From positions 263,999 through 327,998 of the forward strand of contig CBDBIB010000002.1 of NCBI GenBank assembly GCA_965205945.1: a DNA stretch of 64,000 nt, written 5' to 3'. Below the pieces are notes generated by a model. That model was not told the DNA's origin, searched no databases, and saw nothing but the letters and a program-made list of their open reading frames with translations. Shown piece by piece: positions 18,816 to 45,144 of this stretch; the first letter of the stretch is position 1, and each line of letters starts with the position of its first letter. The position numbers and the translations under genes were made by a program. The DNA comes from Bdellovibrionales bacterium (GTDB lineage: Bacteria > Bdellovibrionota > Bdellovibrionia > Bdellovibrionales > UBA1609).

Positions 18816-20021
18816 TTAATTTAGCTCTTCATAGGCAGCTTTTAAGACAAGGTAATCTGCACCTCCATTAAGCTTTTTAGAGTTTATATAAATAGTAGGG
18901 GTGCCGCTTACACCAGCTGTTTTTCCAAGTTTTGCAGATTCAATTAATGCCTGGTTTGTGCTGTCTTTAGACAGGCAGTTTTTCCAAGCATGAAGATCAA
19001 CTTGTTGTGTGCTGTTTACCTGTTTTAAAAAGCTTTGCATTTGTAAGATTAACCCCTCATTGTTTTCACCACCTGCGGCTAAATTCCGATAGTAGCTTTG
19101 ATTTTTAAAAATATCATAGTGGAGAGAAAGGCCAAATCCTTGTTTTTGAGCACAGTAAACTCCCGCTGCAAGAGTACAAGAAAACCCAGGGCCTTTAACT
19201 TTAGGTTCAAAGTTTTTATTGCAGTTCGGGTCTAAGGGATAAGCATAAAAAGAAAACTCAATATTAGTGTGAGTGGCTAAGAATTTCTCTAAAATAGCTG
19301 CTGCTGTTGAGCAATGAGAGCATAAAAAGTCTGCAAATTCAGCAATTTTAACCTTTCCTCCTTGGTTTAAGACAAAAAGAGGAGCGGCCCCTTTTAGGGT
19401 TATAGGAGGTTTGTTTTTCCAGTTTTTAATAGAAGCTTTAATCTCTTTTTCTTGGGCCGCAGGGCTATAATCATTTTTTATAATTTTATGGCTTAAAATA
19501 GAAAAGGCTGGAATAGATAAAAGCAAGAATAAAAAAGTATTTGATTTTAAAATCCTTAGAATTTGAGAAAAGCTAGGTTTATATTTAAACATATATAAAA
19601 ACCCTGCAAAAATAACCGCCGATAAAAAATATAAGAAAATACAAAAAAGACAATAAACACTCATAGCAAAAACAGTTATAAGCCCCATTCCTATTGAAGC
19701 TAAAAGGTTAATGAAAGATAAAGATCCGAAAAAAAACTCCCACGTCTTATCTTTGCTGTCTGACGTTATTAAAATACCAAACAAGCTTATAAGCATCACA
19801 AAGTTTAACATAAAGCCTAAGAGTGCATTAGGAATATTCCCAAAAAGACTAGAGTACTTACTTGCTGCGACAGCCTCACAGTTAAAAGTAGCGTTAATAG
19901 AACAAATACTGTTTCCAGAAGCTGTGCCATACTCAACAGCATAAAACTCAGAAGTAAGGTAGATATAGAGAATTAAAGATAGGATAATGAGTGTAGCTAG
20001 TATATATATTTTTTTTGTCAT
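18816..20021 (-). CDS. VKOR-DsbA/thioredoxin fusion
   Basis: CSINATFNCEAV and YCLFC (VKOR); FADFLCSHC and GVSGTPT (DsbA-like). Confidence 0.88.
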   Translation of the reverse strand: MTKKIYILATLIILSLILYIYLTSEFYAVEYGTASGNSICSINATFNCEAVAASKYSSLFGNIPNALLGFMLNFVMLISLFGILITSDSKDKTWEFFFGSLSFINLLASIGMGLITVFAMSVYCLFCIFLYFLSAVIFAGFLYMFKYKPSFSQILRILKSNTFLFLLLSIPAFSILSHKIIKNDYSPAAQEKEIKASIKNWKNKPPITLKGAAPLFVLNQGGKVKIAEFADFLCSHCSTAAAILEKFLATHTNIEFSFYAYPLDPNCNKNFEPKVKGPGFSCTLAAGVYCAQKQGFGLSLHYDIFKNQSYYRNLAAGGENNEGLILQMQSFLKQVNSTQQVDLHAWKNCLSKDSTNQALIESAKLGKTAGVSGTPTIYINSKKLNGGADYLVLKAAYEELN

Positions 20022-26424: not shown

Positions 26425-26931
26425 TTAATTAGCAAGAAGTAAGAACGTACCAAGTATTCCAAGTCCAATTAAGGCCTCTTTAGCACTAAGATGATGATAA
26501 TGTTGACGTTGATAAGTCCATGTACTGTATAGTCTTGGTTGATCTACATAGTAGTATGAACCTGTCCAAATAATATAATCAAGACGGTTATCACCTTGGT
26601 TTAAACACACTTCTTCATAACCATTAGGTGAACTGTGATAGTTAGAGTTTACATAGCGGTTACGATAATTGTTATAATTACTATCTATCCTAACTTTAAT
26701 TTGATTTGAATTACAAAAAGCTGTTGTAGTGGGAACAAGAAGGTTACAAGCTCTTGTATCAGTTTGAGAGTACTGCCAAGTTTGACCATTGTTTATTGTG
26801 TGTGGTTTGTTAGAGCAGGGAAGTGTTGTTACAGTAGTATTTTTATTACCGCTATCACTGTCTCCACATCCTATAAGTAAGCTTAAAGCTATACCTATTA
26901 TAATAATATTTGTTTTAATTAGTTTTTTCAT
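26425..26931 (-). CDS. Putative lipoprotein, copy 1
   Basis: Lipobox LIGC; hydrophobic C-terminal tail. Confidence 0.8.
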   Translation of the reverse strand: MKKLIKTNIIIIGIALSLLIGCGDSDSGNKNTTVTTLPCSNKPHTINNGQTWQYSQTDTRACNLLVPTTTAFCNSNQIKVRIDSNYNNYRNRYVNSNYHSSPNGYEEVCLNQGDNRLDYIIWTGSYYYVDQPRLYSTWTYQRQHYHHLSAKEALIGLGILGTFLLLAN

Positions 26932-27191: not shown

Positions 27192-27410
27192 TTAATAAAG
27201 AATTAAGCTTAAAAAGCTCTTTGTAATTAGTTTTATGACTTAAGAGATTTTATGTTATTCTCTTTAATATTTTTTGTTAAAAGTTCTTCACATTTTTTTT
27301 TCAAGTTATATCTTGTGCTGCAAAAGCACCTACGCTTACTCCTAGAAATTTAGTATCATGTCGATTAATTTTGTGAAGGTGCATATTGCACCTTTTTATA
27401 TTATTTAAAT
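27192..27410 (-). pseudogene. Decayed remnant of an ankyrin-array unit (N-cap coding part, upstream block, hairpin)
   Basis: Matches array DNA: aaaaagctctttg, aagagattttatgttattctc, gttaaaagttcttcaca, tgtgctgcaaaagcacctac, tgtcgattaattttgtgaaggtgcatattgcacc. Confidence 0.9.
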
Positions 27411-27465: not shown

Positions 27466-27972
27466 TTAATTAGCAAGAAGTAAGAACGTACCAAGTATTC
27501 CAAGTCCAATTAAGGCCTCGTTAGCACTAAGATGATGATAATGTTGACGTTGATAAGTCCATGTACTGTATAGTCTTGGTTGATCTACATAGTAGTATGA
27601 ACCTGTCCAAATAATATAATCAAGACGGTTATCACCTTGGTTTAAACACACTTCTTCATAACCATTAGGTGAACTGTGATAGTTAGAGTTTACATAGCGG
27701 TTACGATAATTGTTATAATTACTATCTATCCTAACTTTAATTTGATTTGAATTACAAAAAGCCGTTGTAGTGGGAACAAGAAGGTTACAAGCTCTTGTAT
27801 CAGTTTGAGAGTACTGCCAAGTTTGACCATTGTTTATTGTGTGTGGTTTGTTAGAGCAGGGAAGTGTTGTTACAGTAGTATTTTTATTACCGCTATCACT
27901 GTCTCCACATCCTATAAGTAAGCTTAAAGCTATACCTATTATAATAATATTTGTTTTAATTAGTTTTTTCAT
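27466..27972 (-). CDS. Putative lipoprotein, copy 2 (one residue, K/N, differs from copy 1)
   Basis: Same 168 aa protein as 26425-26931 except SAKE versus SANE. Confidence 0.8.
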   Translation of the reverse strand: MKKLIKTNIIIIGIALSLLIGCGDSDSGNKNTTVTTLPCSNKPHTINNGQTWQYSQTDTRACNLLVPTTTAFCNSNQIKVRIDSNYNNYRNRYVNSNYHSSPNGYEEVCLNQGDNRLDYIIWTGSYYYVDQPRLYSTWTYQRQHYHHLSANEALIGLGILGTFLLLAN

Positions 27973-30869: not shown

Positions 30870-30898
30870 TTGATATAAATTATAGTAGTGTCATTACA

Positions 30899-30923
30899 AA
30901 AAAGGTGCATATTGCACCTTTTT
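30899..30923. terminator. Bidirectional terminator between plsC and A1
   Basis: AAAAAGGTGCA-tat-TGCACCTTTTT. Confidence 0.85.
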
Positions 30924-30982
30924 ATTATTTAAATCTAATCTAACTGAGTTTAAGTAATCATAAAAAAGCGATTATGTGTTTT

Positions 30983-31573
30983 TTATTCGTTAGCTCCAGC
31001 TTTAATTAATAACTCTACGACTTTAGTGTGACCTTTGATTGTAGCGATTGCAAGAGCTGTATAACCGTTGTTATCTTGAATATTTACATCAGCTTGAGCT
31101 TTAATTAACAACTCTGCTATCTCAGTGTTACCATTAAATGCAGTCCACATAAGAGCTGTTATACCTTGGTAAGTTTTAGCGTTTACATCAGCTTGAGCTT
31201 TAATTAATAAGTCTACGATTTTAGTGTGACCATTGAGTACAGCAATTATAAGAGCTGCGTAACCGTTGTTATCTTCAACATTTACATCAGCTTGAGCTTT
31301 AATTAATAAGTCTACCATTTTAGTGTGACCTTTAAATACCGCAAACATAAGAGCTGTGCCTTCAATTTGATCTTTATTTATAATATAAGAATTAAGGCTA
31401 AAAAGCTCTTTGCAATTAGTTTTATGATTTAAAAATGACTTAAGAGATTTTATGTTATTCTCGTCAATACTTTTTGTTAAAAGTTCTTCACATTTTTTTG
31501 AAGTCATATTTTGTGCTGCAAAAGCACCTACACTTAAAAGTGTTGATACTGTTAAGATGATTAATTTTTTCAT
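30983..31573 (-). CDS. Secreted ankyrin-repeat protein A1 (4 repeats)
   Basis: Signal peptide ending AFA, constant N-cap, GxTALxxA..G....LLIKAQADVN repeats. Confidence 0.95.
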   Translation of the reverse strand: MKKLIILTVSTLLSVGAFAAQNMTSKKCEELLTKSIDENNIKSLKSFLNHKTNCKELFSLNSYIINKDQIEGTALMFAVFKGHTKMVDLLIKAQADVNVEDNNGYAALIIAVLNGHTKIVDLLIKAQADVNAKTYQGITALMWTAFNGNTEIAELLIKAQADVNIQDNNGYTALAIATIKGHTKVVELLIKAGANE

Positions 31574-31730
31574 TGTTTTACTCTCCTTGCTATTGGTTTA
31601 TTTAGTGTCGTTTTTATAACATATTTTTAGTGTTATGTGGGTTAATTTTGTGAAGGTGTGTAAAATTTATAGATCACGGTGTTAAGAAATTAGATAATGT
31701 CTTATGATTTTACAAAACAATATACAATAT

Positions 31731-31759
31731 AAAAAAAGGTGCAATATGCACCTTTTTTT
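31731..31759 (-). terminator. Array-unit terminator after A2
   Basis: GGTGCA-ata-TGCACC flanked by A and T runs. Confidence 0.8.
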
Positions 31760-31816
31760 TATTTAAATCTAATCTAACTGAGTTTAAGTAATCATAAAAA
31801 AGCGATTATGTGTTTT

Positions 31817-32746
31817 TTATTCGTTAGCTTGAGCTTGAATTAATAAATCTATGATTTTAGTGTAGGCGTCGTCTGCAGCGTATGTAGGAGTTTTTTTTCT
31901 AATATTATTTTGAACAGCTACTATAAGAGCTGTTTCTCTAAAATTATTTTTGATATGTAAATTAGCCAAAGCTTTAATTAATAATTCTACGACTTTAGGG
32001 TGACCTTGGCCTGCAGCCATAATAAGAGCTGTGTCTCCAGAAATATTTTGAAGATTTACATCAGCCTGAGCTTTAATTAATAATTCTACGACTTTAGGGT
32101 GACCTTGGCCTGCAGCCATAATAAGAGCTGTGTTATCTTCGTAATTTTGAAGATTTACATCAGCCTGAGCTTTAATTAATAATTCTACGACTTTAGGGTG
32201 ACCAGATTTTGCAGCGTATAAAAGAGCTGTATTACCTTCGTAACTTTGAAAATTTACATTAGCTTGAGCTTTAATTAACAACTCTAGAATTTCAATGTGA
32301 TTAAACCATGCAGCCATAATAAGAGCTGTACTGCCATCATATTTATTTTGGACATTCACATTAGCTTGAGCTTTAATCAACAACTCTACTATTTTAGTGC
32401 GACCATAAAGTGCCCCAATTATAAGAGCTGTTTCACCACGTTTATCTTGAATATTTACATCAGCTTGAGCTTTAATTAATAAGTCTACGATTTTAGTGTG
32501 ACCATTGAATACCGCTAACATAAGAGCTGTGCTTTCTTTTTCATATTTAGTTTTAACATAAGAATTAAGGCTAAAAAGCTCTTTGCAATTAGTTTTATGA
32601 CTTAAAAATGACTTAAGAGATTTTATGTTATTCTCGTCAATACTTTTTGTTAAAAGTTCTTCACATTTTTTTGAAGTCATACCTTGTGCTGCAAAAGCAC
32701 CTACACTTAAAAATGTTAATACTGTTAAGATGATTAATTTTTTCAT
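31817..32746 (-). CDS. Secreted ankyrin-repeat protein A2 (7 repeats; 13 aa insertion in the last)
   Basis: Same architecture as A1. Confidence 0.95.
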   Translation of the reverse strand: MKKLIILTVLTFLSVGAFAAQGMTSKKCEELLTKSIDENNIKSLKSFLSHKTNCKELFSLNSYVKTKYEKESTALMLAVFNGHTKIVDLLIKAQADVNIQDKRGETALIIGALYGRTKIVELLIKAQANVNVQNKYDGSTALIMAAWFNHIEILELLIKAQANVNFQSYEGNTALLYAAKSGHPKVVELLIKAQADVNLQNYEDNTALIMAAGQGHPKVVELLIKAQADVNLQNISGDTALIMAAGQGHPKVVELLIKALANLHIKNNFRETALIVAVQNNIRKKTPTYAADDAYTKIIDLLIQAQANE

Positions 32747-32898
32747 TGTTTTAACTCTCCTTGTTACTGGATTACTTAAGTTGTTTTTTAATAGGCCCTT
32801 AGTATTATGTCGATTACTTTTGTGAAAGTGTGTAAAATTTATAGATCACGGCGTTAAGGAATTAGATAGTGCCTTATGATTTTAGAAAACAATATAAA

Positions 32899-32923
32899 AA
32901 AAAGGTGCATATTACACCTTTTT
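32899..32923 (-). terminator. Array-unit terminator after A3
   Basis: Hairpin variant that retains a G-U pair on the minus-strand RNA. Confidence 0.75.
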
Positions 32924-32981
32924 ATTATTTAAATTTAACCTAACTTACTTAAGTAACCATAAAAAAGCGATTATGTATTTT

Positions 32982-34370
32982 TTATTCTTTAGCTTGAGCT
33001 TTAATTAATAAGTCTACGATTTCAGTGTTACCGAGGCTTGTAGCGATTATAAGAGCTGTGTCACCAACTTCATCTTGAACATTTACATCAGCATGAGCTT
33101 TAATTAATAAGTCTACGACTTCAGTGTGACCGTGGCTTACAGCCCACATAAGAGCTGTGTCACCAAATTTATTTTGAATATTTACATCAGCTTGAGCTTT
33201 AATTAATAATTCTACGACTTTAGGGTGACCTTGGCCTGCAGCCATAATAAGAGCTGTGTCTCCAGAAATATTTTGAAGATTTACATCAGCCTGAGCTTTA
33301 ATTAACAACTCTACGATTTCAGTGTGACCGCGGTCTGCAGCCATAATAAGAGCTGTACTGCCATCATATTTATGTTGGACATCTACATCAGCTTGAGCTT
33401 TAATTAATAATTCTACGACTTTAGGGTGACCTTGGCCTGCAGCCATAATAAGAGCTGTGTCTCCAGAAATATTTTGAAGATTTACATCAGCCTGAGCTTT
33501 AATTAACAACTCTACGATTTCAGTGTGACCGTGGCTTACAGCCCACATAAGAGCTGTGTCACCAAATTTATTTTGAATATTTACATCAGCTTGAGCTTTA
33601 ATTAATAATTCTACGACTTTAGGGTGACCTTGGCCTGCAGCCATAATAAGAGCTGTGTCTCCAGAAATATTTTGAAGATTTACATCAGCCTGAGCTTTAA
33701 TTAACAACTCTACGATTTCAGTGTGACCGCGGTCTGCAGCCATAATAAGAGCTGTACTGCCATCATATTTATGTTGGACATCTACATCAGCTTGAGCTTT
33801 AATTAATAACTCTACGACTTTAGTGTGACCTTCGATTGTAGCGATTATAAGAGCTGTGTTATCAAATGCATTTTGAATATTTACATCAGCTTGAGCTTTA
33901 ATTAATAAGTCTACCATTTTAGTGTTACCATTGAATGCAGCCCATATAAGAGCTGTATCTCCGGGAAGATTTTGAACATTTACATCAGCATGAGCTTTAA
34001 TTAATAAGTCTACGACTTCAGTGTGACCGTGGCTTACAGCCCACATAAGAGCTGTGTCACCATATTTATTTTGAACATCTACATCAGCATGAGCTTTAAT
34101 TAATAACTCTACGACTTCAGTGTTACCGAGGCTTGTAGCCCACATAAGAGCTGTGTCTTCATTTTCATCTTCGGTTTTAATATAAGAATTAAGGTTAAAA
34201 AGCTCTTTGCAATTAGTTTTATGATTTAAAAATGACTCAAGAGATTTTATGTTATTCTCGTCAATACTTTTTGTTAAAAGTTCTTCACATTTTTTTGAAG
34301 TCATATTTTGTGCTGCAAAAGCACCTACACTTAAAAGTGTTGATACTGTTAAGATGATTAATTTTTTCAT
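32982..34370 (-). CDS. Secreted ankyrin-repeat protein A3 (12 repeats)
   Basis: Same architecture as A1; internal duplication at 399 bp offset. Confidence 0.95.
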   Translation of the reverse strand: MKKLIILTVSTLLSVGAFAAQNMTSKKCEELLTKSIDENNIKSLESFLNHKTNCKELFNLNSYIKTEDENEDTALMWATSLGNTEVVELLIKAHADVDVQNKYGDTALMWAVSHGHTEVVDLLIKAHADVNVQNLPGDTALIWAAFNGNTKMVDLLIKAQADVNIQNAFDNTALIIATIEGHTKVVELLIKAQADVDVQHKYDGSTALIMAADRGHTEIVELLIKAQADVNLQNISGDTALIMAAGQGHPKVVELLIKAQADVNIQNKFGDTALMWAVSHGHTEIVELLIKAQADVNLQNISGDTALIMAAGQGHPKVVELLIKAQADVDVQHKYDGSTALIMAADRGHTEIVELLIKAQADVNLQNISGDTALIMAAGQGHPKVVELLIKAQADVNIQNKFGDTALMWAVSHGHTEVVDLLIKAHADVNVQDEVGDTALIIATSLGNTEIVDLLIKAQAKE

Positions 34371-34520
34371 TGTTTTGTTCTCCTTGTTATTGGATTACTT
34401 AGTGCCGTTTTTATAACATATTTTTAGTGTTATGTGGGTTAATTTTGTGAAAGTATGTAAAATTTATAGATTACGGCGTTAAGGAATTAGATAGTGTCTT
34501 ATGATTTTACAAAACAATAT

Positions 34521-34549
34521 AAAAAAAGGTGCATGTTGCACCTTTTTTT
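34521..34549 (-). terminator. Array-unit terminator after A4
   Basis: GGTGCA-tgt-TGCACC flanked by A and T runs. Confidence 0.8.
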
Positions 34550-34604
34550 ATTTAAATTTAACCTAACTTACCTAAGTAACCATAAAAAAGCGATTATGTA
34601 TTTT

Positions 34605-34997
34605 TTATTCTTTAGCTTGAGCTTTAATTAATAAGTCTACGATTTTAGTGTGACCATTGAATGCAGCCCACATAAGAGCTGTGTCACCATATTTATTTTG
34701 AACATCTACATCAGCATGAGCTTTAATTAATAAGTCTACGATTTTAGTGTGACCATTGAGTACAGCAATTATAAGAGCTGCGCTTTCAGTTTTATCTTCG
34801 ATTTTAATATAAGAATTAAGGTTAAAAAGCTCTTTGCAATTAGTTTTATGATTTAAAAATGACTCAAGAGATTTTATGTTATTCTCTTTGACACTTTTTG
34901 TTAAAAGTTCTTCACATTTTTTTGAAGTCATACCTTGTGCTGCAAAAGCACCTACACTTAAAAATGTTAATACTGTTAAGATGATTAATTTTTTCAT
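34605..34997 (-). CDS. Secreted ankyrin-repeat protein A4 (2 repeats)
   Basis: Same architecture as A1. Confidence 0.92.
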   Translation of the reverse strand: MKKLIILTVLTFLSVGAFAAQGMTSKKCEELLTKSVKENNIKSLESFLNHKTNCKELFNLNSYIKIEDKTESAALIIAVLNGHTKIVDLLIKAHADVDVQNKYGDTALMWAAFNGHTKIVDLLIKAQAKE

Positions 34998-35148
34998 TGT
35001 TTTGTTCTCCTTGTTATTGGATTACTTAGTGCCGTTTTTATAACATATTTTTAGTGTTATGTGGGTTAATTTTGTGAAAGTGTGTAAAATTTATAGATTA
35101 CGGCATTAAGGAAGTTAGATAGTGTCTTATGATTTTACAAAACAATAT

Positions 35149-35175
35149 AAAAAAAGTGCAGTTGCACCTTTTTTT
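35149..35175 (-). terminator. Array-unit terminator after A5 (shortened hairpin)
   Basis: GTGCA-gt-TGCAC flanked by A and T runs. Confidence 0.65.
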
Positions 35176-35232
35176 ATTTAAATCTAATCTAAAATTAGTT
35201 TAAGTAACCATAAAAAAGCGATTATGTATTTT

Positions 35233-36024
35233 TTATTCTTTAGCTTGAGCTTTAATTAATAAGTCTACGACTTTAGTGTGACCTTCGATTGTAGCGATTA
35301 TAAGAGCTGTGTCACCAAATTCATTTTGAATATTTACATCAGCTTGAGCTTTAATTAATAAGTCTACGATTTCAGTGTTACCGAGGCTTGTAGCCCATAT
35401 AAGAGCTGTATCTCCGGGAATATTTTGAACATTTACATCAGCATGAGCTTTAATTAATAAGTCTACGACTTCAGTGTTACCGTGGCTTACAGCCCACATA
35501 AGAGCTGTGCCACCAAATTCATTTTGAATATTTACATCAGCTTGAGCTTTAATTAATAAGTCTACGATTTCAGTGTTACCATTGTATGCAGCCCACATAA
35601 GAGCTATTACACCTTGGTAAGCTTTAGCATTTACATCAGCATGAGCTTTAATTAACAACTCTACGATTTCAGTGTGACCGCGGTCTGCAGCCATAATAAG
35701 AGCTGTACTGCCATCATATTTATGTTGGACATCTACATCAGCTTGAGCTTTAATTAATAATTCTACCATTTTAGTGTTACCATTAAGTGCAGCCCACATA
35801 AGAGCTGTGTCTTCATTTTCATCTTCGATTTTAATATAAGAATTAAGGTTAAAAAGCTCTTTGCAATTAGTTTTATGATTTAAAAATGACTCAAGAGATT
35901 TTATGTTATTCTCTTTGACACTTTTTGTTAAAAGTTCTTCACATTTTTTTGAAGTCATATTTTGTGCTGCAAAAGCACCTACACTTAAAAGTGTTAATAC
36001 TGTTAAGATGATTAATTTTTTCAT
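35233..36024 (-). CDS. Secreted ankyrin-repeat protein A5 (6 repeats)
   Basis: Same architecture as A1. Confidence 0.95.
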   Translation of the reverse strand: MKKLIILTVLTLLSVGAFAAQNMTSKKCEELLTKSVKENNIKSLESFLNHKTNCKELFNLNSYIKIEDENEDTALMWAALNGNTKMVELLIKAQADVDVQHKYDGSTALIMAADRGHTEIVELLIKAHADVNAKAYQGVIALMWAAYNGNTEIVDLLIKAQADVNIQNEFGGTALMWAVSHGNTEVVDLLIKAHADVNVQNIPGDTALIWATSLGNTEIVDLLIKAQADVNIQNEFGDTALIIATIEGHTKVVDLLIKAQAKE

Positions 36025-36175
36025 TGTTTTGTTCTCCTTGTTATTGGATTACTTAGTGTCGTTTTTATAACATATTTTTAGTGTTATGTGGGTTAATTTT
36101 GTGAAAGTGTGTAAAATTTATAGATTACGGCATTAAGGAAGTTAGATAGTGTCTTATGATTTTACAAAACAATAT

Positions 36176-36202
36176 AAAAAAAGTGCAGTTGCACCTTTTT
36201 TT
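36176..36202 (-). terminator. Array-unit terminator after A6 (shortened hairpin)
   Basis: Same sequence as 35149-35175. Confidence 0.65.
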
Positions 36203-36259
36203 ATTTAAATCTAATCTAAAATTAGTTTAAGTAACCATAAAAAAGCGATTATGTATTTT

Positions 36260-36949
36260 TTATTCTTTAGCTTGAGCTTTAATTAATAAGTCTACGACTT
36301 TAGTGTGACCTTCGATTGTAGCGATTGCAAGAGCTGTATAACCGGCGTTATCTTGAATATTTACATCAGCTTGAGCTTTAATTAACAATTCTACTATCTT
36401 AGTGTTACCATTAAGTGCAGCCCACATAAGAGTTGTGACACCATATTTATTTTGAAAATTTACATCAGCTTGAGCTTTAATCAATAACCTTACCATTTTA
36501 GTGTTACCGTGGCTTGCAGCCCACATAAGAGCTGTGTCACCAAATTTATTTTGAAAATTTACATCAGCTTGAGCTTTAATTAATAATTCTACGATTTCAG
36601 TGGTACCATTGAATGCAGCCCACATAAGAGCTGTGTTACCATATTTATTTTGAACATTTACATCAGCTTGAGCTTTAATTAATAATTCTACCATTTTAGT
36701 GTTACCATTAAGTGCAGCCCACATAAGAGCTGCGCTTTCAATTTTATCTTCGATTTTAATATAAGAATTAAGGTTAAAAAGCTCTTTGCAATTAGTTTTA
36801 TGATTTAAAAATGACTTAAGAGATTTTATGTTATTCTCTTTGACACTTTTTGTTAAAAGTTCTTCACATTTTTTTGAAGTCATACCTTGTGCTGCAAAAG
36901 CACCTACACTTAAAAATGTTAATACTGTTAAGATGATTAATTTTTTCAT
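36260..36949 (-). CDS. Secreted ankyrin-repeat protein A6 (5 repeats)
   Basis: Same architecture as A1. Confidence 0.95.
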   Translation of the reverse strand: MKKLIILTVLTFLSVGAFAAQGMTSKKCEELLTKSVKENNIKSLKSFLNHKTNCKELFNLNSYIKIEDKIESAALMWAALNGNTKMVELLIKAQADVNVQNKYGNTALMWAAFNGTTEIVELLIKAQADVNFQNKFGDTALMWAASHGNTKMVRLLIKAQADVNFQNKYGVTTLMWAALNGNTKIVELLIKAQADVNIQDNAGYTALAIATIEGHTKVVDLLIKAQAKE

Positions 36950-37098
36950 TGTTTTATTCCTTTTTATTGGATTATTTAGTGTCGTTTTTTAATAGACTCT
37001 TAAGTACTATGTCGATTACTTTTGTGAAAGTGTGTAAAATTTATAGATTACGGCATTAAGGAAGTTAGATAGTGTCTTATGATTTTACAAAACAATAT

Positions 37099-37125
37099 AA
37101 AAAAAGTGCAGTTGCACCTTTTTTT
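37099..37125 (-). terminator. Array-unit terminator after A7 (shortened hairpin)
   Basis: Same sequence as 35149-35175. Confidence 0.65.
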
Positions 37126-37182
37126 ATTTAAATCTAATCTAAAATTAGTTTAAGTAACCATAAAAAAGCGATTATGTATTTT

Positions 37183-37872
37183 TTATTCTTTAGCTCCAGC
37201 TTTAATTAATAATTTTACGATTGTATCGTAGCCGTTATTTTTAGCAATTGCAAGGGTTGTGTAACCGTAGTAATCTCGAACATTTACATCAGCTTGAGCT
37301 TTAATTAATAAGTCTATCATTTCAGTGTTACCATTGGATGCAGCCCACATAAGAGCTATTTCACCTAAGTAAGTTTTAGTATTTACATCAGCTTGAGCTT
37401 TAATCAATAACCTTACCATTTTAGTGTTATCGCGGAGTACAGCAACTATAAGAGGTGTATAACCGGCGCTATCTTGAATATTTACATCAGCTTGAGCTTT
37501 AATTAACAAATTTGCGATTTCAGTATTACCATAGTATGCAGTCCACATAAGAGCTGTGTCACCAAATTCATTTTGAAAATTTATATCGGCTTGAGCTTTA
37601 ATTAATAAGTCTACCATTTTAGTTCGACTGAGTTTTGTAGCCCATATAAGAGCTGTGCTTTCAATTTTATCTTCGGTTTTAATATAAGAATTAAGGTTAA
37701 AAAGCTCTTTGCAATTAGTTTTATGATTTAAAAATGACTCAAGAGATTTTATGTTATTCTCTTTGACACTTTTTGTTAAAAGTTCTTCACATTTTTTTGA
37801 AGTCATATTTTGTGCTGCAAAAGCACCTACACTTAAAAATGTTGATACTGTTAAGATGATTAATTTTTTCAT
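37183..37872 (-). CDS. Secreted ankyrin-repeat protein A7 (5 repeats)
   Basis: Same architecture as A1. Confidence 0.95.
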   Translation of the reverse strand: MKKLIILTVSTFLSVGAFAAQNMTSKKCEELLTKSVKENNIKSLESFLNHKTNCKELFNLNSYIKTEDKIESTALIWATKLSRTKMVDLLIKAQADINFQNEFGDTALMWTAYYGNTEIANLLIKAQADVNIQDSAGYTPLIVAVLRDNTKMVRLLIKAQADVNTKTYLGEIALMWAASNGNTEMIDLLIKAQADVNVRDYYGYTTLAIAKNNGYDTIVKLLIKAGAKE

Positions 37873-38020
37873 TGTTTTACTCTCCTTGTTACTGGATTAC
37901 TTAAGTTGTTTTTTAATAGGTCCTTAGTATTATGTCGATTAATTTTGTGAAGGTGTGTAAAATTTATAGATCACGGCGTTAAGGAATTAGATAATGTCTT
38001 ATAATTTTACAAAACAATAT

Positions 38021-38051
38021 AAAAAAAAGGTGCAACATGCACCTTTTTTTT
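38021..38051 (-). terminator. Array-unit terminator after A8
   Basis: GGTGCA-aca-TGCACC flanked by A and T runs. Confidence 0.8.
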
Positions 38052-38109
38052 TATTTAAATCTAATCTAAAATTAGTTTAAGTAACCATAAAAAAGCGATT
38101 ATGTATTTT

Positions 38110-38601
38110 TTATTCTTTAGCTTGAGCTTTAATTAATAAGTCTACGACTTCAGTGTTACCAAGGCTTATAGCCCACATAAGAGCTGTATCTCCGGAAATA
38201 TTTTGAACATTTACATCAGCATGAGCTTTAATTAATAATTCTACGATTTCAGTGGTACCATTGAATGCAGCCCACATAAGAGCTGTGTTACCATATTTAT
38301 TTTGAACATTTACATCAGCTTGAGCTTTAATTAATAATTCTACCATTTTAGTGTTACCATTAAGTGCAGCCCACATAAGAGCTGCGCTTTCAATTTTATC
38401 TTCGATTTTAATATAAGAATTAAGGTTAAAAAGCTCTTTGCAATTAGTTTTATGATTTAAAAATGACTCAAGAGATTTTATGTTATTCTCTTTGACACTT
38501 TTTGTTAAAAGTTCTTCACATTTTTTTGAAGTCATACCTTGTGCTGCAAAAGCACCTACACTTAAAAATGTTAATACTGTTAAGATGATTAATTTTTTCA
38601 T
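38110..38601 (-). CDS. Secreted ankyrin-repeat protein A8 (3 repeats)
   Basis: Same architecture as A1; 5' part near-identical to A6. Confidence 0.95.
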   Translation of the reverse strand: MKKLIILTVLTFLSVGAFAAQGMTSKKCEELLTKSVKENNIKSLESFLNHKTNCKELFNLNSYIKIEDKIESAALMWAALNGNTKMVELLIKAQADVNVQNKYGNTALMWAAFNGTTEIVELLIKAHADVNVQNISGDTALMWAISLGNTEVVDLLIKAQAKE

Positions 38602-38751
38602 TGTTTTATTCCTTGTTACTGGATTACTTAAGTTGTTTTTTAATAGGCCCTTAGTATTATGTCGATTACTTTTGTGAAAGTGTGTAAAATTTATAGATTA
38701 CGGCGTTAAGGAATTAGATAGTGCCTTATAATTTTAGAAAACAATATAAAA

Positions 38752-38776
38752 AAAAAGGTGCATATTACACCTTTTT
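38752..38776 (-). terminator. Array-unit terminator after A9
   Basis: GGTGCATATTACACC variant (G-U pair on the minus strand). Confidence 0.75.
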
Positions 38777-38835
38777 ATTATTTAAATTTAACCTAACTTA
38801 CCTAAGTAACCATAAAAAAAGCGATTATGTATTTT

Positions 38836-39528
38836 TTATTCTTTAGCTCCAGCTTTAATTAATAATTTTACGATTGTATCGTAGCCGCCATTTATAGCAA
38901 TTATAAGAGCTGTATAACCATGGTAGTGATCTTGAATATTTACATCAGCTTGAGCTTTAATTAATAAGTCTACGATTTCAGTGTTACCATTGAATGCAGC
39001 CCACATAAGAGCTGTATCTCCGGGAATATTTTGAACATTTACATCAGCTTGAGCTTTAATTAATAAGTCTACCATTTTAGTATAATCTTGGAGTGCAGCG
39101 ATTGTAAGAGCTGTGTTACCATATTTAGTTTCAACATTTAAATCAGCTTGAGCTTTAATTAATAAGTCTAGAATTTCAATGTGATTAAACCATACAGCCA
39201 TAATAAGAGCTGTGTTACCATATTTATTTTGAAGATTTACATCAGCTTGAGCTTTAATTAATAACTCTACCATTTTAGTTCGACCGAGTTTTGTAGCCCA
39301 CATAAGAGCTGTGTCTTCATTTTCATCTTCGTTTTTAATATAAGAATTAAGGTTAAAAAGCTCTTTGCAATTAGTTTTATGATTTAAAAATGACTCAAGA
39401 GATTTTATGTTATTCTCGTCAATACTTTTTGTTAAAAGTTCTTCACATTTTTTTGAAGTCATATTTTGTGCTGCAAAAGCACCTACACTTAAAAGTGTTG
39501 ATACTGTTAAGATGATTAATTTTTTCAT
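38836..39528 (-). CDS. Secreted ankyrin-repeat protein A9 (5 repeats)
   Basis: Same architecture as A1. Confidence 0.95.
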   Translation of the reverse strand: MKKLIILTVSTLLSVGAFAAQNMTSKKCEELLTKSIDENNIKSLESFLNHKTNCKELFNLNSYIKNEDENEDTALMWATKLGRTKMVELLIKAQADVNLQNKYGNTALIMAVWFNHIEILDLLIKAQADLNVETKYGNTALTIAALQDYTKMVDLLIKAQADVNVQNIPGDTALMWAAFNGNTEIVDLLIKAQADVNIQDHYHGYTALIIAINGGYDTIVKLLIKAGAKE

Positions 39529-39678
39529 TGTTTTACTCTCCTTGTTGTTGAGTTACTTAGTGTCGTTTTTATAACATATTTTTAGTGTTGTGTGGGTTAA
39601 TTTTGTGAAAGTATGTAAAATTTATAGATTACGGCGTTAAGGAATTAGATAGTGTCTTATAATTTTAAAAAACAATAT

Positions 39679-39704
39679 AAAAAAAGTGCATATTGCACCT
39701 TTTT
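39679..39704 (-). terminator. Array-unit terminator after A10
   Basis: GTGCA-tat-TGCAC flanked by A and T runs. Confidence 0.7.
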
Positions 39705-39763
39705 ATTATTTAAATTTAACCTAACTTACCTAAGTAACCATAAAAAAAGCGATTATGTATTTT

Positions 39764-40122
39764 TTATTCTTTAGCTCCAGCTTTAATTAATAATTTTACG
39801 ATTGTATCGTAGCCGCCATTTATAGCAATTATAAGAGCTGTATAACCATGGTAGTGATCTTGAATATTTACATCAGCTTGAGCTTTAATTAATAAGTCTA
39901 GAATTTCAATGTGATTAAACCATACAGCCATAATAAGAGCTGTGTCACCATATTTATTTTGAACATTTACATCAGCTTGAGCTTTAATCAATAATCTTAC
40001 CATTTTAGTGTTATCGCGGAGTACAGCAGCTATAAAAGGTGTATAACCGGGGCTATCTTGAATATTTACATCAGCTTGAGCCTTAATTAACAATTCTACC
40101 ATTTTAGCATTACCATTGAGTG
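39764..40122 (-). pseudogene. 5'-truncated ankyrin gene A10 (~3.5 repeats, no signal peptide or N-cap)
   Basis: Homology starts mid-repeat (LNGNAKMVELL) shortly after an in-frame TAA at 40130-40132; no array RBS. Confidence 0.85.
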
Positions 40123-41883: not shown

Positions 41884-44800
41884 ATGTCAATGAGCAAAAA
41901 AATATACTACAAACCTAAGAATCCAGTTCGTATTGTCACCGCAACATCATTGTTTGATGGTCATGATGCTGCAATTAATATTATGAGAAGAATCTTACAG
42001 GATATGGGAACTGAGGTTATTCATCTTGGGCACAATAGATCTGTTGCTGATGTTGTTAAGGCTGTTTTACAAGAAGGAGCTCAAGGTATAGCTGTAAGCT
42101 CATATCAAGGTGGTCATATTGAGTATTTTAAATACATGAAAGATCTTTTAGATGCTCATGGGGCCTCCTATGTGAAAATCTTTGGAGGCGGTGGTGGTGT
42201 GATTATCCATGAGGAGAAAAAACTTTTAGAAGACTATGGTATTGTTAAAATTTTTCATCCTGAGGATGGACGAAAGTTAGGCCTTGAAGGAATGATTGAA
42301 ATAATCATTAAAGAGTCTGACTTTAATATTTCAGATGTAGCTAAAGTAGCCTTAAGTCCTAAGGAGGAGATTTATAATCTAGGTTTATTGCCCCATAGAG
42401 ATATAGGTCTACTTATTAATGATAAAGAGCTTAAAAAAAATAGTGTAGATAAATGGGCTAAGCAAGTTAAATCTAAATTATATAGAAATAAAATAAGAAA
42501 ACCTTTAGTTTTAGGACTAACAGGAACCGGTGGAGCTGGAAAATCAAGTTTGATTGATGAGCTTCTTCAAAGGTTTTTAAATTTCTATGAAGACAAAAAA
42601 ATTGCAGTAGTTTGTGTTGATCCTTCAAAAAGAAAAACAGGTGGAAGTCTTTTAGGTGATAGAATTAGAATGAATTCGCTATCTAGAGATAGGGTTTATA
42701 TGAGATCTTTAGCCTCTCGTGGTTCTGGCACTGAAATATCTGGAAAACTTCCACAAGTCTTAGAAGAATTAAAAAAACAATCCTTTGATTTAATTATAGC
42801 AGAAAGCTCAGGAATTGGTCAGGCAAATACGGCTATAACTAAGGTAAGTGATTTAAGCTTATATGTAATGACATCAGAATTTGGTGCACAGAGCCAGCTT
42901 GAGAAAATTGATATGATAGATTTTGCAGATTTTATTGCTATTAATAAAGCAGATAGGCGTGGTTCTGAAGATGCGTTAAGAGATGTTAAGAGACAATATA
43001 TTAGATCTAGAAAACTTTTTTATAAAAATCAAGACGATCTTCCTGTTCATTTAACACAAGCTTCAAACTTTAATGATCAAGGGGTAAATAATCTTTTTAA
43101 AAACATTATAGAATTATTAATAAAAAAAGATACCTTTAAAAGATGGAAGCCTTTAAAGGAAATATCTAAAGGTGAAATTAAAAAAAATATTATTCCATCT
43201 CATCGACAAAATTATTTAACTGAAATTTCAAATACAATAAACACTTATCATAAAAATACAAAAATTGATAAAAAAAGCTTTTCTAATTTAGGGGCTGTGA
43301 AACTCTTAAAAAAAAACGGTGTTAAAAACCTAGATAATTTTGAAAAAGAGCTTTTAATTAAGAATAAAAAAAATGAACTCTTTAATAAAGTTGAAGAATG
43401 GGAGTCTTTAATAAACAAATATAAACAAGATGAATTTTCATATATTGTTAGAGGTAAAGAAATAAAGCAACCTTTAACTTCTAAAACCTTAAGTGGAATA
43501 TCTATTCCAAGAGTGGTGCCTCCTAATATTACGGATTGGGGGGATAGATATGAATTTTTAAGAAAAGAGAGTTTTTCAGGAGAATTTCCTTATACTGCAG
43601 GAGTTTTTCCTCTTAAGAGAAAGAGTGAGGATCCTGGGCGTCAATTTGCTGGGGAAGGTTCACCTGAAAGAACAAATAAGAGATTTCATTATTTATCTAA
43701 AAATGAAAAGGCTAAAAGATTATCTACGGCTTTTGATTCTGTAACCCTTTACGGGCAAGCCCCTCATTTAAGACCAGATATTTACGGAAAAGTAGGGGAA
43801 TCAGGTGTTAGTATTGCAAGTTTAGAAGACATGAAACGTTTATATAAAGGTTTTGATCTTTGTGATCCATCAACTTCCGTAAGTATGACTATTAATGGAC
43901 CAGCACCAATTCTTTTAGCTTATTTTATGAACACAGCTATTGATCAGTATATTGAAAAAAAAGAAATAAAGCTTGGGCGAAAGCTTTGCATAGAAGAATT
44001 TACAAACGCAAGACTTAGGGCCATGCAACTAGTACGTGGTACTGTTCAAGCTGATATTTTAAAAGAAGATCAAGGGCAGAATACATGTATTTTTTCAACA
44101 GACTTTGCTTTAAAAATGATGGGAGATATTCAACAGTATTTTATTAATAATAGTATTAAAAATTTTTATTCTGTAAGTATTTCAGGTTATCATATTGCTG
44201 AAGCTGGAGCAAATCCAATTACACAACTATCATTAACTTTAAGCAATGCATTTACATATGTTGAATACTATTTATCTAGAGGAATGAAGATTGACGAGTT
44301 TGCACCAAGCTTATCATTTTTCTTTAGTAATGGATTAGACACAGAGTATTCTGTTATTGGTAGAGTTGCTAGAAGAATTTGGGCCATAGCAATGAAGGAT
44401 CTGTATAATGCTAACTCAAGGTCTCAAAAACTAAAATATCATATTCAAACCAGTGGAAGGTCTCTTCATGCTCAAGAAATTCAGTTTAATGATATAAGAA
44501 CAACGTTGCAGGCTTTGATTGCTATTAATGACAATTGTAATTCTTTACATACAAATGCATATGATGAAGCGATTACAACTCCTACAGAGGAATCTGTAAG
44601 ACGTGCACAAGCAATACAGCTTATTATTAACAAAGAGCTTGGAAGCACTAAAAACGAGAATACTATTCAGGGCTCATATTTTTACGAATGGCTTACAGAC
44701 AATGTAGAAGAGCAAGTTCTAAAAGAATTTACTCGTATTTCAGACCGTGGTGGTGTGTTAGGGGCTATGGAAACTCAATATCAAAGAGGCAAGATTCAAG

Positions 44801-45144
44801 AAGAATCTATGTATTATGAAATGCAAAAGCATGATGGAACTTTACCGATTGTTGGGGTAAATTTTTTTATTGATAAAAAAACTTTAAATAAGGACTATGT
44901 TCCTAAAAAAATTGCTCTTGCAAGAGCTTTAAAAGAAGAAAAAGAACTTCAACTTAAAAGAACAAATGAATTTAGCATTAAAAATAAAAAATTAGCCGAA
45001 AAAAATCTAAAAAAACTTAAAGAAACAGCACTTTTAGGAGGTAATATTTTTGAAGCTCTTATGGAAGTATCTAGAACATCTACACTTGCACAGATTACAA
45101 ATGCATTGTTTGAAGTTGGTGGCGAGTACCGTCGTAATTTGTAG
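41884..45144 (+). CDS. icmF: Fused isobutyryl-CoA mutase / MeaB-like GTPase IcmF
   Basis: B12-binding DGHD, GTPase GTGGAGKSS and C-terminal mutase domain, in IcmF order. Confidence 0.92.
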   Translation: MSMSKKIYYKPKNPVRIVTATSLFDGHDAAINIMRRILQDMGTEVIHLGHNRSVADVVKAVLQEGAQGIAVSSYQGGHIEYFKYMKDLLDAHGASYVKIFGGGGGVIIHEEKKLLEDYGIVKIFHPEDGRKLGLEGMIEIIIKESDFNISDVAKVALSPKEEIYNLGLLPHRDIGLLINDKELKKNSVDKWAKQVKSKLYRNKIRKPLVLGLTGTGGAGKSSLIDELLQRFLNFYEDKKIAVVCVDPSKRKTGGSLLGDRIRMNSLSRDRVYMRSLASRGSGTEISGKLPQVLEELKKQSFDLIIAESSGIGQANTAITKVSDLSLYVMTSEFGAQSQLEKIDMIDFADFIAINKADRRGSEDALRDVKRQYIRSRKLFYKNQDDLPVHLTQASNFNDQGVNNLFKNIIELLIKKDTFKRWKPLKEISKGEIKKNIIPSHRQNYLTEISNTINTYHKNTKIDKKSFSNLGAVKLLKKNGVKNLDNFEKELLIKNKKNELFNKVEEWESLINKYKQDEFSYIVRGKEIKQPLTSKTLSGISIPRVVPPNITDWGDRYEFLRKESFSGEFPYTAGVFPLKRKSEDPGRQFAGEGSPERTNKRFHYLSKNEKAKRLSTAFDSVTLYGQAPHLRPDIYGKVGESGVSIASLEDMKRLYKGFDLCDPSTSVSMTINGPAPILLAYFMNTAIDQYIEKKEIKLGRKLCIEEFTNARLRAMQLVRGTVQADILKEDQGQNTCIFSTDFALKMMGDIQQYFINNSIKNFYSVSISGYHIAEAGANPITQLSLTLSNAFTYVEYYLSRGMKIDEFAPSLSFFFSNGLDTEYSVIGRVARRIWAIAMKDLYNANSRSQKLKYHIQTSGRSLHAQEIQFNDIRTTLQALIAINDNCNSLHTNAYDEAITTPTEESVRRAQAIQLIINKELGSTKNENTIQGSYFYEWLTDNVEEQVLKEFTRISDRGGVLGAMETQYQRGKIQEESMYYEMQKHDGTLPIVGVNFFIDKKTLNKDYVPKKIALARALKEEKELQLKRTNEFSIKNKKLAEKNLKKLKETALLGGNIFEALMEVSRTSTLAQITNALFEVGGEYRRNL

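Follow-up and report, generated by a model that had tools for sequence, protein, structure and literature searches.

Ankyrin (ANK) repeat genes that change by recombination have been described in both bacteria and fungi. In Wolbachia, the number of repeats per ANK gene varies by duplication and deletion. Some repeats are chimeric, in that helix 1 and helix 2 come from different repeats (Siozios et al. 2013, PMC3563639). Intragenic homologous recombination and illegitimate recombination are both implicated, and short direct repeats correlate with polymorphism (PMC3563639). In fungi, the high-internal-conservation (HIC) class of WD40, ANK and TPR repeats, found in NLR proteins, is nearly identical from repeat to repeat, with hypervariability limited to a small number of binding-face positions (Dyrka et al. 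2014, PMC4986451; PMC13449251). For ANK repeats, the hypervariable sites are in the beta-hairpin and inner helix. Paralogues gain and lose such repeats and also exchange them, internally and with each other, and unequal crossover with ectopic conversion has been proposed (PMC4986451; PMC13449251). The class is defined by 80-100% identity between repeats, or a T-REKS Psim value of at least 0.7 (PMC4986451; PMC13449251). A 2026 paper on HIC repeats notes that they occur in bacteria as well (PMC13449251). Note that, here and in all comparisons below, our account of these systems draws on selected passages of the cited papers. In this work, we describe an array of ankyrin repeat genes from a Bdellovibrionales bacterium (GenBank assembly GCA_965205945.1, contig CBDBIB010000002.1). 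The analysed DNA, referred to as the window, is 64,000 nucleotides long. The array consists of ten minus-strand open reading frames (ORFs) between window positions 30983 and 40120: nine complete genes, named A1 to A9, and one 5'-truncated copy, A10.

The nine complete genes share a common plan. Each begins with the same 20-residue signal-peptide-like segment (MKKLIILTV...GAFA/AQ). The N-terminal part spans 66 codons and contains two invariant Cys residues, C28 and C54, with 25 residues between them. The remainder is made of ankyrin repeats (2, 3, 4, 5, 5, 5, 6, 7 or 12 per complete gene), spaced by 33 or 34 amino acids, in proteins of 130-462 residues. The program TRF detected 99-bp periods in each array gene, with matches of 69-88%. 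Pfam Ank scores are 354 bits for A3, 145 for A6 and 110 for A1 (cut-off 21.1; best E=3e-110). These scores, the repeat spacing and matches to ankyrin and DARPin structures in the PDB place the proteins in the ankyrin repeat family (PF00023 / PF12796).

How does the array compare with known systems? Like Wolbachia ANK genes, it is bacterial, varies in repeat number, contains chimeric repeats and has been subject to recombination. However, Wolbachia ANK genes are dispersed and often linked to prophage, and the comparisons made were between strains. The present case is a single chromosomal tandem array in one genome, formed of paralogues with a Sec signal and a common N-terminal part, and the repeats are far more alike. 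With respect to HIC repeats, the 38 non-terminal 99-nt units have a mean difference of 22.0 in 99 nt, or about 78% identity. Variation in repeat number, from 2 to 12, and repeat exchange, seen as inter-gene patches, are both evident, between paralogues only. Hypervariable positions also appear to lie on the binding surface, judged by ranking columns for entropy and mapping them, via a DARPin alignment, onto ANK-N5C sites. In contrast to fungal NLRs, the array proteins are small, bacterial and apparently exported, with no NACHT/NB-ARC ATPase and no effector domain, and repeat-induced point mutation does not apply. Pfam scans of A1, A3 and A6 returned essentially ankyrin-family matches only, with no NACHT or NB-ARC. 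As in designed ankyrin repeat proteins (DARPins), one consensus-like framework is combined with diversity at beta-turn and helix 1 positions. Unlike DARPins, the array is natural, and variation extends to columns 1, 12, 13, 19 and 21-24.

We consider it probable that the array evolves in concert, by unequal crossover and short-tract gene conversion, with substitution of surface codons, in an exported ankyrin family. By analogy, this looks like the process at work in Wolbachia ANK genes and fungal HIC repeats, and not a new mechanism of diversification.

Exchange between repeats

Our alignment contained 51 repeat units, with the terminal repeat of A2 left out. There are 47 distinct units, of which 31 are distinct internal repeats. 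Units are named by gene and position, so that A2.3 is the third repeat of A2. Exchange is most easily seen in individual units. A2.3 follows A3.5 with one difference in nt 1-45 and two in nt 68-102. Between these segments, at nt 46-67, A2.3 has 11 bases that are unlike A3.5 and identical to A9.2/A10.3. The ends of the patch are at nt 44-46 and 68-71. Similarly, A9.4 is identical to A5.5 save for 7 bases, at nt 36-51, where it is identical to A6.2. Finally, nt 24-89 of A4.1 are identical to A1.2, whereas its loop is that of A8.1. Base-level patches of this type cannot be produced by recurrent mutation. We conclude that exchange between repeats is real.

Exchange is not limited to the repeats. 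The spacers contain two haplotype blocks, at two separate places, and all four combinations are present. When the whole array was painted using a copying model, 83 segments resulted. One tract, running from the 3' end of A6 into the 5' end of A5, matches that running from the 3' end of A5 into A4 (499 nt, 4 mismatches). Further long tracts, of 376-380 nt with 1-3 mismatches, also cross gene borders. A6 and A8 have about 380 nt in common, with 1-3 mismatches, comprising the upstream spacer, N-terminal part and units 1-2. The 3' end of A9 is common to A10 (223 nt, 3 mismatches). Within A3, a 399-bp block of four repeats has been duplicated recently (292 nt with 1 mismatch; 283 nt with 0). For the 47 distinct units, a PHI-type permutation test gave p=0.025, 0.0035 and 0.12, for windows of 10, 20 and 30 nt respectively. 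Synonymous difference (pS) is 0.024 in the 66 N-terminal codons, compared with 0.21 in the repeats. The N-terminal codons are thus far more alike, as expected if the 5' ends are homogenised and not if genes are merely duplicated whole.

Our preferred explanation would work as follows. RecA-type homologous recombination would act between similar 99-bp repeats, and across roughly 450 bp of spacer and 5' coding sequence. Unequal crossover would alter the number of repeats and the number of genes, while recombination would keep the framework and 5' ends nearly identical. Gene conversion would move short patches, of roughly 16-70 nt, between repeats. Substitutions would build up at a few beta-turn and helix 1 codons, which form the partner-binding surface of ankyrin proteins. 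The paralogues would thus present different binding faces on one scaffold. The genome encodes RecA and two MutS-family proteins, and the process may depend on RecA.

Relatives of the array were found in the same genus. Genome G003 encodes proteins of like build, with a signal peptide, a Cys-25-residues-Cys N-terminal part and ankyrin repeats. By eye, the 18 repeats that were extracted have a framework of their own, unlike that of the array. Species-specific frameworks are what concerted evolution predicts. Two loci in the same genome, L017 and L018, contain ankyrin genes that are broken up and flanked by transposase-like ORFs. Several copies are truncated, and a 327-aa ORF is identical in the two loci. 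Outside the genus, the collections searched yielded only generic ankyrin proteins, none with the N-terminal part of the array. Briefly, a search of genome contigs found distant ANK proteins only (29-40% identity). Among the best 120 of 422 matches, from a search of 5.8 billion proteins, identity was at most 58%, the window's own proteins aside.

Anchors, junctions and competing explanations

A preliminary description of this DNA proposed that two sequences, conserved even at synonymous sites, serve as anchors for recombination. One encodes TAL and the other LLIKAQADVN; between them are the loop and helix segments. The 9-mer TAL anchor, ACAGCTCTT, has 42 exact copies, all on the minus strand and within the array, where 0.72 are expected. 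The 30-mer anchor has 41 copies with at most 2 mismatches (15 exact, 17 with one mismatch and 9 with two) where 0 are expected. Codon use is indeed fixed. In the anchors, Leu is encoded by CTT in 50/50 units, though the genome share of this codon, among Leu codons, is 0.30. Other anchor codons are similarly conserved: ACA 45/45, GCT 47/47, ATT 51/51 and GTA 38/39. However, codons outside the anchors are fixed to the same extent, including CAC 24/24 (genome share 0.23), ACT 39/39, GTA 45/45, GCA 26/26 and GGT 41/44. Since this applies wherever the amino acid is conserved, synonymous identity extends over the whole repeat and does not single out the anchors. Such identity is as expected for young, or homogenised, repeats.

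Logically, if the anchors are where recombination occurs, breakpoints should be concentrated there. For each switch of donor in the painting, the junction interval was taken as the stretch where both donors are identical, and one unit of mass was spread over it. For the 53 in-repeat switches, mass relative to length share was 0.99 in the loop, 0.60 in TAL, 1.20 in helix 1, 1.09 in helix 2 and 0.93 in the 30-bp anchor. Compared with a uniform spread, chi-square tests gave p=0.85 (53 events), 0.59 (32 events) and 0.83 (11 events). Indeed, 32 of the 53 intervals touch neither anchor. Increasing the jump penalty from 2.5 to 7 changed the TAL share from 0.87 to 0.60, 0.34 and 0.0. Across the same four penalties, the share of the 30-bp anchor was between 0.84 and 1.32, and the spread was never significantly non-uniform. 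We also simulated six arrays with exchange at anchors only, and treated these with the identical pipeline. In this case, TAL was enriched 2.1-3.4x, and 19-36% of intervals touched neither anchor. The junction test therefore has power, since it recovers a TAL excess where one exists. We conclude that breakpoints are evenly spread and not concentrated at the anchors. Note that randomly placed breakpoints had been named, in advance, as an outcome that would refute the proposal.

With the strictest support, 14 junctions remain, and 10 of these are in repeats. Four are inside the 30-bp anchor, one overlaps it and two include TAL. The other three are off the anchors, at nt 36, 51-64 and 62-66. Patch ends at nt 44-46, 51-64, 62-66 and 68-71 fall inside the helices. 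On our preferred reading, the anchors are just the stretch of the repeat under greatest constraint, corresponding to helix 2 and the turn after it. They would supply homology without being preferred cut points.

We then compared loop and helix segments as potential modules. At 21-24 nt, the segments are too short for trees, and Mantel tests, site incompatibility and mutual information were used instead. Treated as alleles, the haplotypes (39 loops and 32 helix-1 types) are too many for an informative haplotype-bound test. Loop and helix are nearly uncoupled: the Mantel r is 0.15 (p=0.026) when all 47 distinct units are used, and 0.11 (p=0.12) when only the 31 internal units are. Across the 30-bp anchor, between the helix of one repeat and the loop of the next, r is 0.05. 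Conversely, the two helices are coupled to each other (r=0.42, p=0.0002). By mutual-information z-score, amino-acid columns group into blocks that correspond to the loop, helix 1 and helix 2. Site incompatibility has a value of 1.49 for pairs inside the loop and 1.36 for loop-helix pairs; the anchor-only simulation gave 0.5-1.0 and 1.3-2.0 respectively. Since sites inside the loop are as incompatible with each other as they are with helix sites, the loop cannot be called a coherent module. Parts of repeats do re-assort, as was proposed, but not as discrete modules cut out at two anchors.

All five pairings of loop and helix motifs, quoted in the preliminary description, are present at the protein level. 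For one of these, involving the NISGD loop of A8, the DNA tells a different story. Of the 21 nt in the NISGD loop of A8.3, 3 are unlike the A2/A3 version, two of these at the third position of a codon, and 1 is unlike the NIPGD loop of A5.5. Overall, just 5 bases distinguish A8.3 (NISGD with MWAISLG) from A5.5 (NIPGD with IWATSLG), before the terminal codons. Hence, A8.3 is a point-mutated relative of A5.5. Taken together, the original interpretation is partly supported.

We consider it unlikely that TAL and LLIKAQADVN are preferred recombination points, with diversity arising mainly from discrete half-repeat modules. Such a model does account for loop and helix being nearly uncoupled while the two helices are coupled, and for associations that fall across TAL. 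Furthermore, three patch ends may lie in, or next to, TAL (A4.1 nt 24-35, A5.1 nt 26-43 and A9.4 nt 25-35), and 5 of the 10 strictest in-repeat junctions touch the 30-bp anchor. Chimeric ankyrin repeats in Wolbachia, joined between the two helices, are also a precedent (PMC3563639). Against this are the low TAL share, the many intervals off both anchors, incompatibility inside the loop as high as that between loop and helix, patch ends inside helices and the origin of A8.3. In addition, nine bp of identity is far below the length usually required for RecA-mediated exchange.

Our preferred explanation, concerted evolution with exchange throughout the repeat, must itself be weighed against several results that do not favour it. 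First, association between columns drops across TAL by more than expected from distance (z=0.7-2.1, compared with 4-6 for within-block pairs 4-5 codons apart). Either exchange close to TAL, or columns that co-vary inside a structural element, could be responsible. Second, 7 of the 10 strictest in-repeat junctions touch an anchor, and the share of the 30-bp anchor rises to 1.3x at the highest jump penalty. The 30-bp anchor may therefore be mildly preferred. Note that such a preference would amount to exchange of whole, rather than half, repeats. Third, substitution rates, described below, do not show diversifying selection. Finally, one genome of the species was examined, so no exchange event was caught happening, and a single assembly underlies the long-range order of the array.

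It is very improbable that no exchange has occurred, and that whole units or genes were duplicated, with recurrent point mutation at selected codons creating look-alike modules by convergence. Very high site incompatibility, even inside the loop (86% of site pairs), would fit this scenario. So would single-base toggles at columns 15, 21, 22 and 24, and the point-mutated A8.3. However, patches of 7-11 differing bases match another unit inside flanks identical to a third, and the four spacer haplotype combinations are also at odds with duplication alone. We simulated duplication without recombination, using site-heterogeneous mutation, matched divergence and a tree shape of our choosing. For the 99-nt units, the observed loop-helix r of 0.072 is below that in all 40 simulations (0.089 to 0.458). 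Similarly, helix-by-helix incompatibility is 0.73, compared with 1.5-1.9 in simulations.

Could the mosaic result from mis-joined reads in a repetitive region? No contig from three public sequencing runs spans the array, and Logan contigs are only 100-200 nt in length there. Even so, we rate an assembly artefact as highly unlikely. All nine genes are open, with in-frame spacing of 33/34 aa, and no junction that we analysed extends over 150 nt or more. For run X1, 111 of 113 contigs are at least 99% alike, and all 30 bins are covered; for run X2, the figure is 48 of 49 at 99% or more. Note that these two runs may come from the source sample. Agreement with a second sample, X3, is 26/29. A search for new junctions listed two joints, with a shorter side of 21 letters and a depth of 2-2.5, under the reliability guide of the tool. 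Logan contigs agree with the assembly locally, and are too short to address order or variants.

We regard it as extremely unlikely that a dedicated diversifier is at work, be it a diversity-generating retroelement or silent cassettes for antigenic variation: variability is focused on few codons and A10 has no promoter region or start, yet the reverse transcriptase family RVT_1, a retroelement requirement together with a template repeat, had no match in the genome (97.3% complete; control genomes did match), by eye the changes have no adenine-specific pattern, and 9 of 10 copies have an ATG, signal peptide, conserved upstream spacer with ribosome-binding site and their own terminator, whereas a silent-cassette system has one expression site and promoterless donors, so that most copies would be without start codon and promoter. 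The window itself was described as encoding no recombinase or reverse transcriptase. In line with this, recombinase, transposase and reverse-transcriptase families had 0 matches among 43 window ORFs scanned with Pfam (5 ORFs at E<=0.01 and 38 at E<=1e-5; 12 of the 43 had no Pfam match at all). The proposal that no dedicated mutator is needed also holds, with no reverse transcriptase found in a genome that is 97% complete.

Variable positions and the binding surface

Among the 31 distinct internal repeats, the columns with highest entropy are 16, 5, 17, 8 and 4, followed by 1 and 13. The best PDB match, identified using HMMER, is the DARPin construct 5leb (E=1.7e-94). Via this alignment, columns 16, 5, 17, 8 and 4 correspond to scaffold positions 13, 3, 14, 5 and 2. 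In the ANK-N5C library, as described in the portion of the paper used here, the randomised binding-surface positions are 2, 3, 5, 10 and 13 (PMC4308713). Judged by alignment, the five most variable columns of the array would thus match positions randomised in designed ankyrin binders. The original DARPin design reportedly randomises positions 2, 3, 5, 13, 14 and 33.

Selection for diversity in binding may have acted on these columns. Taking all pairs, the ratio of nonsynonymous to synonymous difference (pN/pS) comes to 1.20, and a minimum spanning tree gives 1.17 (binomial p=0.12). When normalised by class, surface columns have pN of 0.245 and pS of 0.282, and framework columns have 0.036 and 0.035. 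Both ratios are approximately 0.9-1.0. Note that such estimates are unreliable because of saturation, multi-step codon changes and conversion.

A bolder possibility is that the array serves as a germline repertoire, in which a bacterium with a small genome maintains natural binders of DARPin-like type. The scaffolds would be exported, with binding faces continually re-assorted by short-tract conversion among paralogues, and A10 would act as an extra donor. We regard this as a long shot. If true, the repertoire would allow the species to track variable surface molecules of a host, prey or competitor. It would also be a bacterial, secreted and non-NLR counterpart of fungal recognition by HIC repeats. 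The locus is, in any case, a compact and clean bacterial example in which a near-identical scaffold is kept while the binding face varies. As such, it could serve as a natural model for recombination and selection acting on repeat binders, and is a possible source of stable ankyrin scaffolds.

Layout and surroundings of the array

The coordinates of array genes, spacers and other features are listed below.

Table 1. Features of the ankyrin array and its surroundings, by window position
Feature	Position	Strand	Description
A1	30983..31573	-	196 aa; signal peptide, N-terminal part, 4 ankyrin repeats
A2	31817..32746	-	309 aa, 7 repeats; 13-aa insertion in last repeat
A3	32982..34370	-	462 aa, 12 repeats
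A4	34605..34997	-	130 aa, 2 repeats
A5	35233..36024	-	263 aa, 6 repeats
A6	36260..36949	-	229 aa, 5 repeats
A7	37183..37872	-	229 aa, 5 repeats; among the most divergent (2-11 mismatches in matched segments)
A8	38110..38601	-	163 aa, 3 repeats
A9	38836..39528	-	230 aa, 5 repeats
A10	39764..40120	-	5'-truncated copy: partial first repeat and three repeats
Conserved 3' tail of array unit and terminator hairpin after A1	30888..30982	-	Array homology stops about here; boundary by eye from alignment
Nine spacers	31574-31816, 32747-32981, 34371-34604, 34998-35232, 36025-36259, 36950-37182, 37873-38109, 38602-38835, 39529-39763	-	233-243 bp
Degenerate remnant of family N-terminal part	27193..27342	-	46% identity, 3 stop codons; outside array
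Lipoprotein-like ORF	26425-26931	-	168 aa
Lipoprotein-like ORF	27466-27972	-	168 aa
VKOR-DsbA fusion	18816-20021	-	Pfam VKOR and DSBA
1086-aa ORF	41884-45144	+

Each spacer has a terminator hairpin just 3' of the stop codon, followed by an upstream region and ribosome-binding site. Mean column identity between spacers is 80%, in an alignment that includes the stretch downstream of A1. A terminator scan identified ten hairpins for the ten genes (15 sites, compared with 3.9 +/- 2.2 in shuffled sequence). Since each gene has its own terminator hairpin, each looks like a separate transcription unit. A scan for sigma-70 promoters was uninformative, with 38 sites compared with 49.5 in shuffles. Upstream of A10, there is no start codon region, signal peptide or N-terminal part, and the truncated copy adjoins a divergent 3-hydroxyacyl-CoA dehydrogenase gene. 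An acyltransferase gene flanks the array on the other side. The last repeat of A2 (31817-31960) carries its insertion, of 13 residues, between helix 1 and helix 2, and has a diverged framework (LLIQAQANE).

The surroundings consist of housekeeping genes: ffh, rimM, trmD, rplS, rnhB, lptD, argS, fab genes and glyA. Assembled into 5 contigs, the genome has a size of 1.87 Mb, and nearly all matches to an array protein fall within the array. Outside it, two adjoining ORFs, of 81 and 98 aa, occur in genome G000, contig C1, at approximately 209.1-209.6 kb (L019 positions 1589-1834 and 1862-2158). They have a similar signal peptide and Cys-25-residues-Cys part, with 59% identity to A6 residues 2-59, and are without ankyrin repeats. 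From this likeness, they are a putative second locus of the family's head domain.

The window also encodes a periplasmic disulfide-forming enzyme, the VKOR-DsbA fusion. This may be relevant to the two conserved Cys residues of the ankyrin proteins, which are predicted to be exported and could form a disulfide in the N-terminal part. The two lipoprotein-like ORFs each have an LIGC lipobox-like motif and no Pfam match. They differ by one residue and are 1041 bp apart, with the degenerate N-terminal remnant between them. This pair looks like a second recent tandem duplication beside the array. On the other side, the 1086-aa ORF is found directly after the 3-hydroxyacyl-CoA dehydrogenase gene and a 256-aa ORF. 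Read by eye, the 1086-aa protein resembles a B12-dependent acyl-CoA mutase fused to a G-protein chaperone domain and, on the same basis, the 256-aa product looks like an enoyl-CoA hydratase.

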